Below, piece after piece: positions 32,218-51,573 of a stretch of 64,000 nucleotides of DNA. Under the pieces are notes generated by a model. It saw only the letters and a list, made by a program, of their open reading frames with translations. It was not told the origin of the DNA and ran no database searches. The first letter of the stretch is position 1. Each line of letters starts with the position of its first letter. Position numbers and translations under genes: made by a program. This DNA comes from Alphaproteobacteria bacterium (GTDB lineage: Bacteria > Pseudomonadota > Alphaproteobacteria > JAAXGF01), in the NCBI GenBank assembly GCA_963555825.3, contig CAUVXB020000002.1:1984001-2048000 (forward strand), read 5' to 3'.

Positions 32218-32610
32218 CTACTCCTCAAAGCGACCCGTGGCGTCACGATCGCGGTCGTATCGTCTCGTGAGCGGAAACGGCGGCAACCAGGACTCGCGAC
32301 GGACGATCCAGCTTTCGTAGGTTGGCATCAGTTGGTCAGGGGCATCCAGGGATACTAAGTTCACTTCGATTTCGTCTGCGCTGCGTGCGAAAATGGACGA
32401 GCCGCAGCGGGGACAGAACAACCGCCCGACGTAGTCGCGTGTTTCGCCATCGATCGTCACCGCATCCTGAGGGAACACCGCGGAAGCGTGAAAAAGGGCC
32501 CCATGATGCTTGCGGCAGTCGAGACAGTGACAAAGGCCGACCCGGTATGGGAGTCCCGACGCCACAATTCGGACGTTGCCGCACAGGCAACCGCCGGTGA
32601 ATCGGTCCAT
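32218..32610 (-). CDS. GFA/CENP-V family zinc protein
   Basis: GGCLCGNVR, CHCLDCRK, FCPRCGS. Confidence 0.92.
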   Translation of the reverse strand: MDRFTGGCLCGNVRIVASGLPYRVGLCHCLDCRKHHGALFHASAVFPQDAVTIDGETRDYVGRLFCPRCGSSIFARSADEIEVNLVSLDAPDQLMPTYESWIVRRESWLPPFPLTRRYDRDRDATGRFEE

Positions 32611-32948
32611 GCTGCGTCTCCTCTAAAATCAAGCGGTCGGAATGGTTACAACGAACAGCACTGTCATTGCAATTGCCCGCTGCGGGCGACTTGCGACCCA
32701 GACTGTGTAAAAACGCCGGCAAATACCACTAACAGGAGAGTGTCAAGTCAATTCTTCTATAGAGCCCTCATGATAAGATGTTGATTTGGTCGAACCTACA
32801 AATTCGAGAATTCAGAGAAAATCGTGCCAATAGCGCTCGGGGGCGGTTTTTACACATGGCGTAACTCGGGGATCGGGCACTGCTCTCCTTAATGTAGCAA
32901 CGACCGGCATGGGCCGGGCGAGCACACTGAAAGAGCAGGAGAGCAGCT

Positions 32949-33978
32949 ATGGAACTGTATGTTGGAATGGATGTATCGCTCAAGGAGACCTCGATCTGCG
33001 TGGTCGATGACAACGGCGAGATCGTGTCCGAGGGCGTGGTGATCTCGGAGCCGGCGGCAATCGCGGCGTATATCAGGACAACGGCGCCGCACGCAAAGCG
33101 CATCGGTCTGGAGACCGGTCCGACGACGACCTGGCTGTGGCATGAGCTCAGGGCGCTCGGCTTGCCGGTGATCTGCATCGATGCGCGTCATGCCAAGGCG
33201 GCGCTGTCGATGCAGATCAACAAGAGCGACCGGAACGATGCCGCCGGGATCGCGCGGGTCATGCAGTGCGGTTGGTACAAGGAGGTCCAAGTCGAGCGTG
33301 GCGTGCCACGAGATACGGGCCGTCCTGAACAGCCGGGCCCAGTTGGTCAAGATCAAGCGTGATCTCGAGAACCAGATCCGTGGCTTGCTCAAGAACCTCG
33401 GCCTCGTCATCGGCAAGGCGGGCGGCAATGTCTTCCGTCGCCGGGTCGAAGAGCTGCTTGGCGGGCAGGGTCTTTTGTCGGAGGCCGTTCGGCCCCTTCT
33501 GGAAGTCCGCGAGAAGGTCGGCCGAGAGATCGCCGCGCTCTATCGCAAGCTGCTGGGCCTGGCGCGGAACGACGAGGACAGCAGACGTTCCATGACGGTT
33601 CCAGGCATCGGGCCGATCACCGCCTTGGCCTTCCACTCGGCGATCGACGAGCCGAGCCGCTTCCGACGTTCCCGGAGTGTCGGCGCGTACATCGGGCTGA
33701 CGCCGCGCCGCCATGCTTCCGGCGAGGTCGATTGGACGGGGCGGATCTCCAAATGCGGCGATCGAATGCTCAGGACCTACCTCTTCGAGGCGGCCGGCGT
33801 GCTGCTCACCCGGGTGCCGCGATGGTGCGCGCTCAAGGCCTGGGGTCACAGGTTGTGGAAACGCATCGGCTTCAAGAAGGCCAAGATCGCCGTGGCACGG
33901 AAGCTGGCGGTCATCCTCCATCGCATGTGGCGTGATGGAACGGACTTCATCTGGTCAACCAAAGAGGCGGCCGCATAG
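32949..33978 (+). pseudogene. IS110 DEDD recombinase, frameshifted near 33293
   Basis: YVGMDVS, GLETG, KSDRNDA in ORF1; VPGIGPITA, GLTPRRHASGE, ISKCGD, AVARKLA in ORF2. Confidence 0.9.
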
Positions 33979-34200
33979 GGAAACAACGTCCAAGCATTCC
34001 GCGAGAGCGGAACCGATGTCCCTGTCGGGACGGCGGCGTCGGCGAGATCGATCCAGGCTTTGCGATGCCTCACCGAGGCAAGCGCGCTTCACACATTGAT
34101 CCGCCAACGTCCTCCAACGCCATCATGCGGAGGGCCGAGCCCCTACCGCGGAGAGAACAGTGAACCCGGCAGGTACGTCACGGAGAGCTTGACAACCAAC
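33979..34200 (+). ncRNA. Predicted bridge/seek RNA of the IS110 element
   Basis: Two internal-loop hairpins carrying TCCAGGCT and TTCACACA (target match) and ACGCCAT and AGAGAACA (donor match). Boundaries approximate. Confidence 0.75.
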
Positions 34201-34329
34201 CCCCGAGTTAGAGAACAGCCTGGACCCTCAGCAGACATTCATCGCTTTGAGTAAGGGGCACGATTCAGTGCCGATTGACATATAGTCTTCATGAATTTGA
34301 AGGTTATCTGGGAAATGTCGGCTTGATGT

Positions 34330-35643
34330 ATGACCTTAGGCAGCGGTGATTTTCCAACGGATCGACATGGCTGGGCGGAACTCCTGCCGGAACGGCAAGC
34401 GAGCCCGCCTTTAAGTGGAGCTCACAGGGTGTCGTGGGCGGTGATCGGGGCCGGGGTGACCGGTCTGGCCAGCGCCTGCCGTCTGGCCGAGCTCCACCCC
34501 GATCATGAGATCATGCTGCTGGATGCGCGTTTGGTTGGCCAGGGGGCCTCGGGGCGCAATTCCGGTTTTGCCGTCGCCGTCAGTCATTTCGATGGCGGCC
34601 TCGAGGCCGACGAGATGGCGAACTATCGTCGGGTCAATCGTATTAACCAAGCCGGTCTGGATCTGTTGCGAGTGCAAGTCGCCACGTCCGCGATTGATTG
34701 CCAATGGCAGGAAGATGGTTTTCACCATACCGCCGCTGATCGGCCGGCAATTCGCGAATGCCGCAATTTCCTGCGCTATCTTGAGGCCATGGAGATCGCC
34801 CATACGCCGCTTGATGCGGAGGCATTGAACGCGCGTCTGGGCACCACCCTTTACCAATCCGGCGTCCACGTCCACAAGGGGGCGCTCCTGCAACCGGCGG
34901 CCTTGGTGCGCGGGCTAGCGGACAATTTGCCCTCCAATGTCAGACTTCATGAACGAAGCCCGGTGCTCAGGATCGAGAATGGCACACCGCTGATTCTCCA
35001 CCTGCCAAATGGCGAGGTGCGGGCCGATAAACTTATTTTGGCGACCAACTACGAGGCGGCGAAACTTGGCTATCTGTGCCGCTATCTGATCGGCACCACC
35101 TTGTCGGGCAGTTTCACACGGACCTTAACTGATGATGAGCTTGCCAGCCTCGGCAGCCGGAAGGAATGGGGGGTTCTCTCGCTACACGGCGGCGGCGCGA
35201 CCGTGCGGCTGACGGCGGACCGGCGAATATGCCTGCGCAACGCGGCGGAGTATAATGGTGCCGCATTGCTGTCCGATAGGCAATTGGCCCATCGACAATC
35301 CATCCATCGGGCCGGGTTCGAGAAGCGCTTTCCGAAACTGGCCCATGTAGCGTTCGACTATGCCTGGTCCGGTGTCGAAGGGATCAGCCGCAACGGCGCC
35401 AATTTTTTCGGTCGCCAACGGGACAATATTTATCTCGCGGGCGGCTATAACGGTTCCGGCGTCAGCCGGGGGACGGCCTTCGGCACGGCGCTCGTAGACT
35501 ATGCCAGTGGCGGTCATTCACCGCTGATTGACGATTGTCTGGCCTCAGCACCTGGCGCCTGGATTCCGCCCAGGCCTTTCCTCGACATCGGCGCCCTTCT
35601 GACCGTCCGATCGCGTTTCCGGGGCGTTGGTTTGGATCGATAA
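34330..35643 (+). CDS. FAD-dependent oxidoreductase (DAO/PuuB-like)
   Basis: VIGAGVTG, GASGRNSGF, LQPAALVRGLA, GYNGSGV. Confidence 0.9.
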   Translation: MTLGSGDFPTDRHGWAELLPERQASPPLSGAHRVSWAVIGAGVTGLASACRLAELHPDHEIMLLDARLVGQGASGRNSGFAVAVSHFDGGLEADEMANYRRVNRINQAGLDLLRVQVATSAIDCQWQEDGFHHTAADRPAIRECRNFLRYLEAMEIAHTPLDAEALNARLGTTLYQSGVHVHKGALLQPAALVRGLADNLPSNVRLHERSPVLRIENGTPLILHLPNGEVRADKLILATNYEAAKLGYLCRYLIGTTLSGSFTRTLTDDELASLGSRKEWGVLSLHGGGATVRLTADRRICLRNAAEYNGAALLSDRQLAHRQSIHRAGFEKRFPKLAHVAFDYAWSGVEGISRNGANFFGRQRDNIYLAGGYNGSGVSRGTAFGTALVDYASGGHSPLIDDCLASAPGAWIPPRPFLDIGALLTVRSRFRGVGLDR

Positions 35644-48659: not shown

Positions 48660-49834
48660 TACCAGTGAGCCTATGAAATCACCTTCATGATCCATGGATA
48701 GGCGCAGAGGGTTCGCATACGATCCGGTTCTGCGATGAGGTCGATCCATGCTTGGCAACAGGCGTCGATGATGGCCTCGGTGTCGTCGAGGACGCGGAGC
48801 GATAGGAAGCGTTCGCGTAGGTAGAGCCAAACCCGCTCGACGGGGTTGAGTTCGGGACTGTAAGGCGGCAACAGCGCCAAGGTGACGTTGTCGGGGACGG
48901 TGAGGGCGCGCTCGTCGTGCCAACCGGCGCCGTCGCACATCATGACGGCGTGCGCATCCTGGTCCAGGGTATCGGCGAAGTGTGCGAGAAACAGGTCCAT
49001 GACCTTGGCGTTGACGCTCGGCATCACCAGGGTGACGTCGTCGCCGGTGTCCGGGCGCACGGCGGAGAAGATGTAGGCCCACTGGTAGCCGATTTGACGC
49101 GTCCCGGGGGCACGCTCGCCCCTGCGCCACCACCGGTGACACACCCGGCCCTTGTTGCCGACGCGCGCTTCATCCTGAAACCACAGCTGTAGGCGCTTGT
49201 CGGGATGCGCCGCGGCGGTCGCCTTCAGGATGTCGCGAAGCCCCCTTTTTTGAAGCGCTCCTGCGCTTCGGCGTCCCTTCGCGGGTGGCTCGGGCGCGCC
49301 TTCTGGCGGGAAAATCCCATCCGCCGTAGAACCCGGGTCATGCTCGAGGGGTGGTAGGTCTTGGCGAAGCGCTCCTCCAGCCAGCGGCACAGATCGGCCC
49401 GGGTCCAGGCGCAAACCCCGTCGCGCTCAGGCTCCGGCCCGGCGATGATGACCGCCGCCAGCGCCGCTTCCTCGTCTGCCGTCAGCCGCCGCGGCGAGTA
49501 GCCCTTTGGACGGTCGTGAAGCCCCTCCAATCCCTTTGCATTGTAACGAACAACCGCGTCGCGAAGCGTTTGGCGATCCATCCCCGCAAGCCGCGCGGCA
49601 TCAGCCCGGGGCATCTCCTCCAAAGCATTCGCGATCCCATAGGCCCGCGCCGCCGCTCGACCGTACGATTCCACGCGAGCCCAGCGCCGAAGCTCCAAAG
49701 GCGTCAAATCATCCCGTATCTTGAGTGCTGATCCCATGACATCCCCCACATCTGGTGGGAGACCATAGAATCACAATCCGCCATCATCCGCCATCAATGA
49801 ATATCCCGAGAGTCAATTCAGGCGCTCACTGGTA
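48660..49834 (-). mobile_element. IS630-family element, copy 2 (tandem, apparently identical)
   Basis: Identical ORF translations offset by 1178 bp. Confidence 0.95.
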
Positions 49835-50006
49835 TAAGAACGTTTGCTGCGTGATCTGTACGGCGCGTCTTTGGCTTCGATGATCCGTCGCGGCGGGTAT
49901 TCCGGGATTAAGGATTTTCGCCACTCGTGCGGACCTGTCGGCCGGCTGGCGCCGGTGTGAGCTGCGATTTGGCCGGATATGGGCGCAATTTGCGGCGCAG
50001 AGAGGC

Positions 50007-51449
50007 CTATGCGGTCCTCATCGCCGCGATCAGCGGGTCGATGCCCGTGATGTTCATGACGCGCTTGAGATTGTAGGCCAGCACGTGCAGGGCCATCTCG
50101 GTCCTCACCCGTTTCAGCGTCTTCGTCTGGAAATGCGTCGCGCCCATCCAGGACTTGATGGTGCCGAAGGGATGCTCGGCCGTCTCGCGCCGCCGACGCA
50201 TCGCCTCCGGGTGCTCGTCGAGCCGCCTCTCGACGGCCTCGAGAACATGCTCGTGCTGCCAGCGGGTGATGCGGCGCTGCTTGGCCGTGGTGCAGCGATG
50301 CTTGATGGCGCATCCCTGACAGGCGTTGGTCCAGTAGCGCCGCATGCTCAGCCCCCTCTCCTGGCTGGTGAAGCGGTAGACCAAACGCTCGCCGGCCGGG
50401 CAGCGATAGACATCGTCGGCGGCCAGATAGACGAAGTCCTGTTTGCCGAAGCGGCCCTTGGCCTTGGCTCCAGAGGTCAGCGGCTTAGGCAATGTGACGG
50501 TGATGCCGGCCTCATCGCAGGCCAGAATCTCCTTGCCGTTGTAGTAGCCGCGATCGGCAACGACATCCAACTCGTCGGTCTCCAGAGCCGCCTTGGTCCG
50601 CTTCGCCATGGCTGAGAGCTGGGCGCGGTCGGTGCCCTGATTGGTCACCTCGTGGGCGACGATCAGGTGGTGCTTGGTGTCGACGGCGGCCTGAACGTTG
50701 TAGCCGACCACGCCGGAACCCCGGCCGCTCGTCGCCATCGAGCGGGCATCGGGATCGCTCAGAGAGATCTGCTGGTCCGGGCTCGCACGCCGCTCGACTT
50801 CAAGCGCCTTCAGGCGCCGCATCTCCTCCTTGAGGATCGCGATCTTGTCGGCCAGACGAGTCGTCTTGGTCGTGCGCGCCAGCGACGGCTCTTGCCGGTC
50901 GGCGCTGTCCAACTGGTCCAGATAGCGCGCAACGCTCTCCTCGATCTGCGCCACCCGCCGCGCCATCTTGGCCCGCGTGAAGTTCCTGTCCCGGCTGTTG
51001 ACCGCCTTGAACTTCGAGCCATCGATCGCCACGCTCGCCTCGGCGAACAGCCCGAGTTGCCGGCACAGCGCGACGAACCGGGCGCAGACCTTGCGGATCG
51101 CACGGCCGTTGTCCTTGCGGAAGTCGGCGATCGTCTTGTGATCCGGCGCCAGCCGGCCGACCAGCCACATCACTTCCACATTGCGCCCGGCCTCCCTCTC
51201 GAGCCGACGGCTCGACTGAACCCGGTTGAGATAGCCGTAGATGTAGAGCTTCAACAAATCGCAAGGATGATAGGCCGGCCTGCCGGTCGCCAGCGGCTCG
51301 ACCCGGTCGAACCCGAGGCCGCCAAGATCGAGCTCATCGACGAAGACGTCGATCGCCCGAACCGGGTTGTCGTCGCCGATCCAGTCTTCCAGGCGCTCCG
51401 GAAACAACGTGCCCTGGCTGCGATCGACACCCTCGACAAAACGCTTCAT
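50007..51449 (-). CDS. IS1182-family transposase
   Basis: GRPAYHP..LLKLYIYGY..SSRRLE, PDHKTIADFR, IDGSK, GYNVQ, ADRGY, EHPFGTIK. Confidence 0.95.
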   Translation of the reverse strand: MKRFVEGVDRSQGTLFPERLEDWIGDDNPVRAIDVFVDELDLGGLGFDRVEPLATGRPAYHPCDLLKLYIYGYLNRVQSSRRLEREAGRNVEVMWLVGRLAPDHKTIADFRKDNGRAIRKVCARFVALCRQLGLFAEASVAIDGSKFKAVNSRDRNFTRAKMARRVAQIEESVARYLDQLDSADRQEPSLARTTKTTRLADKIAILKEEMRRLKALEVERRASPDQQISLSDPDARSMATSGRGSGVVGYNVQAAVDTKHHLIVAHEVTNQGTDRAQLSAMAKRTKAALETDELDVVADRGYYNGKEILACDEAGITVTLPKPLTSGAKAKGRFGKQDFVYLAADDVYRCPAGERLVYRFTSQERGLSMRRYWTNACQGCAIKHRCTTAKQRRITRWQHEHVLEAVERRLDEHPEAMRRRRETAEHPFGTIKSWMGATHFQTKTLKRVRTEMALHVLAYNLKRVMNITGIDPLIAAMRTA

Positions 51450-51509
51450 CAGACCCTCCCGCCAAAGCACGAGAGAATCATAACACCATCGACGTTTTTA
51501 CACAGTCTG

Positions 51510-51573
51510 GGTCAGCTGCAGACCTACGGCGAAGTTGGGTTGGGCGTCCGCTTTCGAGCGGTAGGCGGGCATT
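51510..51573 (+). repeat. Right part of the bipartite boundary site split by IS1182 (left part 47453-47469)
   Basis: Rejoined: AATGTCTACTGCGGGTCAGCTGCAGACC-N20-CGTCCGCTTTCGAGCGGTAGGCGGGCATT. Confidence 0.75.

Follow-up and report, generated by a model that had tools for sequence, protein, structure and literature searches.

A predicted bridge RNA in the right end of an IS1111-group insertion sequence matches the terminal-repeat tip shared by an IS1182-family element and a miniature element

Results

A bridge RNA is predicted in the non-coding end of an IS1111-group element

In the window, the 64,000-nt stretch of DNA analysed here, we identified a 239-nt segment (33979-34217) that very probably encodes the predicted bridge (seek) RNA of an insertion sequence, guiding insertion into the repeat tip of IS1182-family elements and of a miniature inverted-repeat element (MITE). 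The insertion sequence belongs to the IS1111 group of the IS110 family and occupies 32854..34217 on the forward strand (1,364 bp), an extent based on six full-length copies with 97-100% identity in the host genome (two contigs, 6.04 Mb). Its ends were set from the six junctions and from unoccupied sites. The core ACA is found at both junctions (32854-32856 and 34215-34217): the left junction reads ..GGTTTTTAC-ACA-TGGCGTAAC.. (over a longer span, GGTTTTTAC-ACA-TGGCGTAACTCGGGG) and the right junction ..GTTAGAGA-ACA-GCCTGGACCC.. (also given as CCCCGAGTTAGAGA-ACA-GCCTGGACCC). There is no target duplication beyond the core, as unoccupied sites have one ACA and occupied sites one ACA per junction. 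The empty target and the circle junction of the original prediction can both be derived from these junctions, and the empty target is also directly present in the genome, where three unoccupied sites read TTTACACAGCCTGGA with a single ACA; TTCACACAGCCTGGA is a further target sequence named beside it.

Sub-terminal inverted repeats of 10 bp were found on the forward strand 8 nt from the left end (TAACTCGGGG, 32862..32871, conserved in relatives) and 7 nt from the right end (CCCCGAGTTA, 34201..34210), within the 7-17 bp, and with the short terminal extensions, that are typical of IS1111 elements. Non-coding DNA amounts to 95 nt before the start codon versus 239 nt after the stop codon, i.e. the longer side lies downstream. 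The element has all of the features that separate the IS1111 group from IS110 proper in the literature (PMC11187229, PMC11208160), and 33979-34217 is its right, non-coding end. No named insertion sequence came up in a search of plasmids, where the best match (69% identity, from Bradyrhizobium) is annotated as "IS110 family transposase" only. About 150 bp upstream of the copy at C1:1664823 is an inverted fragment (G000:C1:1664415-1664676) with 74% identity to nt 1-223 of the element.

The transposase gene of the window copy is read on the forward strand in two pieces, an N-terminal DEDD part (32949..33362; PF01548, E = 6.7e-10) and a C-terminal part in a shifted frame that contains GLTPRRHASG (33181..33978; PF02371, E = 9.9e-23). 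Compared with four other copies, a 2-bp deletion (AA) after 33293 breaks the reading frame, and the AA is present in one RNA-library contig. Among the six copies, two have the 2-bp frameshift (the window copy included), one has a 34-bp insertion and three are intact, encoding 343 aa (e.g. L003:1596-2627). The frameshift repair proposed earlier for reconstituting the recombinase is unnecessary, since three copies in the same genome carry an intact gene. The intact translation contains GLTPRRHASG, in the form GL-P----S(T)G, and falls in the range of 330-350 aa given for the group (PMC11187229). It scores 252.3 bits (cut-off 140) on NF033542, the NCBIfam model for IS110 RNA-guided transposases, and is distantly similar in sequence to two transposases of solved structure, those of IS621 (E = 3e-9) and ISCro4 (E = 7e-9), while identity with counterparts on enterobacterial plasmids is below 60%. 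The IS110/IS1111 identity that had been read from the sequence by eye is backed by PF01548 and PF02371, the NF033542 score, the sub-terminal repeats and the downstream non-coding end.

The target is the repeat tip common to a MITE and an IS1182-family element

The element is inserted in one end of a MITE of ∼162 bp. The MITE body spans 32702..32853, with its far repeat CAGACTGTGTAAAAAC near 32702 and its near repeat split by the insertion, such that ..GGTTTTTAC ends at 32853. The right target half (34218..34226) consists of the MITE/IS1182 repeat tip, GCCTG, and then the 4-bp target duplication, GACC. The genome has ∼12 copies of the MITE (78-89% identity), and intact copies measure 161-162 bp and are flanked by 4-bp direct repeats. 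The terminal 17-20 nt of the MITE are those of a 1,684-bp IS1182-family element with ∼28-30 genome copies. One full-length copy of the latter lies in the window at 49830..51513 on the reverse strand (left boundary approximate); it has the same terminal repeat and is unoccupied by an IS1111-type element. Its 487-aa transposase (50007-51470, reverse strand) scores 452.9 bits on NF033551 (cut-off 270) and has the Pfam domains DUF772 and DDE_Tnp_1_6.

The IS1182-type element runs CAGNCTGTG...CACAGNCTG, its ends in common with the MITE are CAGNCTGTGT(A/G)AAAAC... and ...CACAGNCTG, and its target variants are ..AGTCTGGA and ..AGGCTGGG. Flanking 4-mers agree in 24 of 30 element rows (19/21 full-length and 5/9 MITE, with some MITE rows counted on both strands). 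The duplications are mostly GACC, and the variants GGCT, GAAC and GTCC are each matched on both sides. Since the flanking 4-mers agree, variants included, the IS1182-type element ends at ..CAGNCTG and makes a 4-bp duplication.

Several other repeats were noted around these elements. The flanks of IS1182 copies often carry GTCTGC...GCAGAC inverted repeats, as if the element lands in a palindromic repeat, and the genome has a 25-nt palindrome family (GTCYGC..GCRGAC; 72 of 144 pattern matches have that length). When empty palindromic IS1182 sites were sought in the genome with regular expressions, none was proven. Adjoining the IS1182 copy, window positions 49700-49839 are part of another repeat of ∼136-140 bp, present in ∼75 copies (98-100% identity) on both contigs. 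A second miniature element of 161 bp (G000:C2:2559722-2559882) has the same terminal repeat and a different interior.

Four guide motifs match the target and the joined ends

The original prediction named four motifs in the non-coding end as guides, and all four are present at the positions it gave, on the forward strand. Target guide 1, TCCAGGCT (34052..34059), is complementary to the top strand AGCCTGGA, which comprises the final base of the core, then five repeat-tip bases and two from the duplication. The boundary between terminal repeat and duplication falls where it had been drawn, as guide 1 takes in AGCCTG from the repeat and GA from the duplication. Target guide 2, TTCACACA (34088..34095), is identical in sense to the top strand over the left target half plus core, with a 7/8 match to TTTACACA at the window site and 8/8 at the copy at C2:1372882. 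The first donor guide, ACGCCAT (34117..34123), is complementary to ATGGCGT, i.e. the last core base and the left end of the element (7/7), and the second, AGAGAACA (34152..34159), is identical to the right end plus core (8/8). A second occurrence of AGAGAACA at 34210-34217 is the right end itself, and both the guide and the right end are invariant in 52 aligned relatives.

The likelihood of such motifs arising by chance was assessed with 20,000 first-order Markov random sequences, modelled on the 219 nt of the non-coding end that remain without its last 20 nt. The four motifs occurred in 39, 452, 481 and 142 of these sequences, respectively; at least two occurred together in 19 of the 20,000, and all four in none.

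IS1111-type elements encode their RNA in the right end, and the segment that matches the top strand lies 5′ of the one that matches the bottom strand (PMC11187229); the guides here have the same order as in those seekRNAs. Bridge RNAs could be predicted for 93% of IS1111 elements (PMC11208160).

Two solo 3′ fragments in the genome (G000:C2:2842354-2842537 and C2:840560-840645) have diverged (88-91%) and belong to another lineage of such elements. Guides ACCGAGGTA and TCTTCAATA are present in the first, and in both the right flank is G(G)CCTCGGC; they are remnants of a differently programmed relative.

The guides lie in the loops of a conserved structure

To obtain homologues, one genome per species was scanned, which gave 80 loci with proteins 69-90% identical to the intact protein (229 relatives found). 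From these, 52 distinct 3′ ends were aligned, and RNAalifold and a structure set by hand were in agreement. The consensus has a small hairpin (34017-34032) followed by two predicted stem-loops on the forward strand. The target-binding stem-loop (34035..34111) has an outer stem (34035-34050 with 34097-34111), an 11x11 internal loop (strands 34051-34061 and 34086-34096) and an inner hairpin (34062-34085). The donor-binding stem-loop (34113..34174) has a 3-bp outer stem (34113-34115 with 34172-34174), loop strands 34116-34126 and 34150-34171, and an inner hairpin (34127-34149). All four motifs lie in unpaired loop strands of this consensus, and the location of the target guides in an internal loop, on which the original prediction depended, was borne out, as both lie within the 11x11 loop between covarying stems.

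Standard pairing holds in 98.5% of 1,715 cells across the 52 homologues, and compensatory changes affect 6 of 33 pairs. The observed values of pairing and compensation were not equalled in any of 500 shuffles, and pairing fell to 36-56% in a control in which partners were slid. In the outer helix of the target stem-loop, pairing reaches 99.4% and an A-U pair is swapped to U-A in 24 of 52 sequences, and the variable inner segment of this stem-loop forms one hairpin in all 52. The inner helix of the donor stem-loop is 99.3% paired with one compensatory pair, and its outer helix is weak (3 pairs, 89.1% paired, two compensatory pairs). At two positions G-U is found in all 52 sequences. The minimum-energy fold of the single sequence has z = -2.57 and, unlike the consensus, pairs part of the first guide. 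All of the stem arms named previously are in place (GGCGAGATCGA from 34041, TTGATCCGCC from 34096, TGCCTC from 34066 and GAGGCA from 34075), and the outer stem is kept in the consensus, except that one base of each arm, the last A on the 5′ side and the first T on the 3′ side, falls in the loop. A search of Rfam 15 with 32600-34500 (E up to 1) gave no matching family; the sole match was a chance microRNA on the other strand (32765-32817).

Target guides change together with the flanks in relatives

Of the 81 loci examined for covariation of guides and flanks, the anchor motifs were present in 65 and both flanks in 57, which yielded 48 distinct guide/flank combinations. Guide 1 matched its cognate flank at 6.67 of 9 positions (shuffle mean 4.78, maximum 5.56) and guide 2 at 7.94 of 9 (shuffle mean 6.38, maximum 7.02), so that both target guides exceeded all 2,000 shuffles, as the original prediction requires. 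Kinship among the loci inflates such tests, yet changes are seen on either side of the element and in several distinct guide classes. For example, guide GTCTTGGCT goes with flank AGCCAAGAC, ACCCTGGCT with AGCCAGGGT, ACAGATTTT with AAAATCTGC, TCCGATTTT with AAAATCGGC, and TTATCAACA with flank TTATCAACA. In locus L089, guide TTTACACA goes with flank TTTACACA, where the window has TTCACACA as its guide.

In the donor loop, the ends and guides are nearly invariant; a single compensating change occurs, in 3 loci from one assembly. Against the left end, the 5′ donor guide is mismatched at one central position (6/7) in 53 of 71 loci and matches 7/7 in 7 loci, including the window type. In conclusion, the target guides covary with the flanks across homologues, and the donor loop varies too little for covariation.

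All six copies occupy matching sites in MITE ends

Mapping of all genomic copies, as the original prediction suggested, placed six of six at matching sites and none at unrelated sequence. All six are in MITE ends (four in one end, two in the other), and the orientation is constant, with the left end adjoining the MITE interior in 6/6. The sequence upstream of the element is ..TTTT(T/C)AC-ACA in every copy and that downstream is G(C/T)CTGGACCC in five. At five of the occupied sites the guides match all but 1 of 15 positions; the exception, at C1:1664823, has the right flank GCCTAG and 3 mismatches of 15. Among 76 unoccupied look-alike sites, 6 have at most one mismatch and 70 have at least two.

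None of the 47 full-length IS1182 ends in this genome is occupied. Each differs from the guides at 2-4 of 15 positions, chiefly the base that follows ACAG and positions in the left half. The idea that the RNA guides insertion into IS1182-type ends is therefore supported with a qualification: the recognised sequence is the IS1182-family terminal repeat, but the six copies in this genome are all in the MITE. Insertion beside full-length IS1182 genes was seen in relatives only. An IS1182-like transposase is present on the left flank in 24 of the 72 related loci in which the left end was found (20 assemblies), and in 21 of these 24 it lies <170 nt from the left end. The neighbouring genes face either way, which is what insertion into one or the other terminal repeat should produce. 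NF033551 was the best NCBIfam match for 6/6 flank transposase fragments, four of them above the full-length cut-off. Guide classes with quite different targets (..TTGCAACA|AAATC..) also adjoin IS1182-like transposases, and these neighbours are 23-30% identical to the IS1182 protein of the window. When the 239-nt end was searched in the genomes of 30 relatives, it gave fragments only, in 2 of them, and no further full insertion sites.

RNA-library contigs cover the non-coding end

Metatranscriptome contigs from four RNA libraries of two studies (X1-X4) cover 33092-34238 in pieces; these contigs give neither strand nor level, and DNA carry-over is possible. No circle junction is among the joints listed for the X1-X4 contigs. 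In run X2, a contig with a loose end at 34223 joins the right end to GCCTGG|GTCAACAGCGGAC.., the flank of no copy here, which suggests that a related strain has another site occupied. In run X3, a contig with differences at 34052, 34073 and 34087 represents an element variant with CCCAGGCT replacing TCCAGGCT, which would suit ..CCTGGG ends. Together, the X3 guide variant and the X2 foreign flank suggest that guide and site are polymorphic among related strains.

A sigma-70 promoter scan of 32700-34350 gave no promoter, and the only terminator-like site in the same range is inside the gene. TTGACA at 34189-34194 was considered as a promoter and rejected, because by eye there is no usable -10 box at 16-18 nt, either on the linear element or across the joined ends. 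By analogy with the family, the stretch would act as an RNA, and this RNA would bind the recombinase.

Partial copies of the 3′ end are arranged in tandem

Four of the six copies are followed by head-to-tail partial copies of their own 3′ end (G000:C1:345593-346225; C2:1372475-1372885; C1:936502-936626; C1:1666189-1666211). These partial copies begin at element positions 734, 1159 (twice), 1242 and 1344, and each is joined at the exact right terminus, at AC(A). Units of 207 bp contain both RNA loops, and thus the locus with these units has three copies of the RNA gene. One junction falls at a guide itself (TTCACACA|TTGATCC).

Discussion

Proposed mechanism and alternatives

We propose that the right end of the element encodes an RNA with two stem-loops. 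In the first loop, TCCAGGCT and TTCACACA would pair with opposite strands of the target TT(T/C)AC-ACA-GCCTGGA, which is the outer tip of the IS1182-family/MITE inverted repeat plus 2 nt of the 4-bp duplication. In the second loop, ACGCCAT and AGAGAACA would pair likewise with the joined ends of the excised element (..AGAGA-ACA-TGGCGT..); this role of the donor loop is modelled on the family, in contrast to the motifs, the structure, the target covariation and the 6/6 sites, which were observed directly. The 343-aa DEDD recombinase would, as in characterised relatives, hold the RNA and bring the circle junction and the target together. Strand exchange at the common ACA core would then result in insertion in one orientation, 5 nt from the repeat tip.

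A different reading is that the matching segments act as DNA or through protein, i.e. the target is recognised by the recombinase itself, or through DNA pairing of the 3′ end, and the hairpins are protein-binding or terminator structures. Covariation of segments and flanks is expected under any pairing mechanism, the RNA-library contigs do not show transcription and the promoter scan was negative, all of which this reading accommodates. We nevertheless consider it highly improbable, because the stems are kept through compensatory changes and G-U pairs, fitting RNA over duplex DNA, and because in four IS1111-group elements an RNA co-purified with the transposase and was both essential and reprogrammable (PMC11187229). 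The tandem partial copies raise another thought, that the internal matches are leftovers of rearrangement, old junction pieces captured by the events behind these copies and without a guiding role; four of six copies have such partial 3′ copies and one junction is exactly at TTCACACA|TTGATCC. Captured junctions would join target and end, whereas here the two halves are sorted into separate loops. Moreover, the segments are on alternating strands at fixed loop positions in a structure kept in 52 relatives, and in relatives at different targets they change with the flanks, where the guide letters of the window are not retained. Of the alternatives, we give this one the least credence.

It is also possible, if very unlikely, that the RNA gene and the target match are real and the element is a dead relic that has lost mobility in this genome. 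The frameshift in two of six copies, the 34-bp insertion in one and the six good sites that stand empty would be in keeping with such a loss. Three intact 343-aa genes and the 97-100% identity of the copies speak against it, as does the RNA-library contig from another sample in which the right end is joined to GCCTGG|GTCAACAGCGGAC.., a flank absent here.

We suggest, tentatively and with more doubt than confidence, that the whole IS1111-type lineage may live on IS1182-family transposons, with a target loop that diversified in step with the terminal repeats of IS1182 lineages whose transposases share only 23-30% identity with relatives of one another here. On this view, each insertion removes the last 5 nt of the host element's repeat, so that the RNA-guided element would parasitise another parasite and would naturally disable IS1182 elements and MITEs. 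If true, it provides a ready-made natural series of reprogrammed guides.

Relation to known systems

Partridge and Hall reportedly described, in 2003, that IS4321/IS5075, which have sub-terminal repeats, insert at one position and in one orientation in the terminal repeat of another transposon. The element here resembles IS4321/IS5075 in its group, in its sub-terminal inverted repeats and in its single position and orientation inside a transposon terminal repeat. It differs in its host element, an IS1182-family insertion sequence plus a 162-bp MITE, and in its occurrence in environmental Alphaproteobacteria and others. The IS621 protein is only distantly alike (E = 3e-9, C-terminal half), and IS621 has the core CT, compared with ACA here. 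Both RNAs have a target loop and a donor loop, with two guides each on opposite strands and a short core; in contrast, the IS621 RNA is in the left end and its guide order is reversed (PMC11208158, PMC11208160).

Close parallels exist with ISEc11, ISKpn4, ISPa11 and ISPst6 (PMC11187229), in which the RNA lies downstream of the transposase gene, the protein has ∼340 aa with GL-P----SG, the order in the target loop is the same, the two matches overlap in the target and redirection among relatives occurred naturally. Their targets are different, and the element here is known from sequence alone. PMC11187229 leaves the role of the longer RNA open; here, the second loop plainly matches the joined ends. 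A MITE as the usual landing site recalls IS1111 of Coxiella burnetii, with 20 of 21 copies in QMITE2 (PMC5896051). In that case the target is a palindrome inside the MITE, whereas here it is a terminal-repeat tip common to an autonomous IS1182-family element.

The mechanism and the position of the RNA are already known (PMC11187229, PMC11208160), and the added value is modest, consisting of a natural guide series and the proposed lineage-wide tie to IS1182. A literature search, mostly at the level of titles and abstracts, found no report of IS1111-type elements in IS1182 ends; such elements may already be catalogued in ISfinder or in the supplements of papers. RNA-guided recombinases of this family are under development for genome writing, and naturally reprogrammed guides reveal what the enzyme tolerates. 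The ∼50 relatives form a readable series of guides and targets, with single-letter changes and tolerated mismatches (position 5 upstream of the core), and the series also shows avoided sites (those with T or G for the central C of the right half). IS1182-family ends and their MITE derivatives join the list of mobile-element landing sites for IS1111-type elements. For annotation, the analysis accounts for the 239-nt "non-coding" tail and for six interrupted miniature elements in this genome.

The tandem partial copies of the RNA-coding end are similar to the tandem non-coding repeat units by IS110 transposase genes (bioRxiv 10.64898/2026.08.14.744561) and to the modules of ISPpu9 (PMC12288879). 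The units here differ in belonging to an IS1111-group element with the RNA at the right end.
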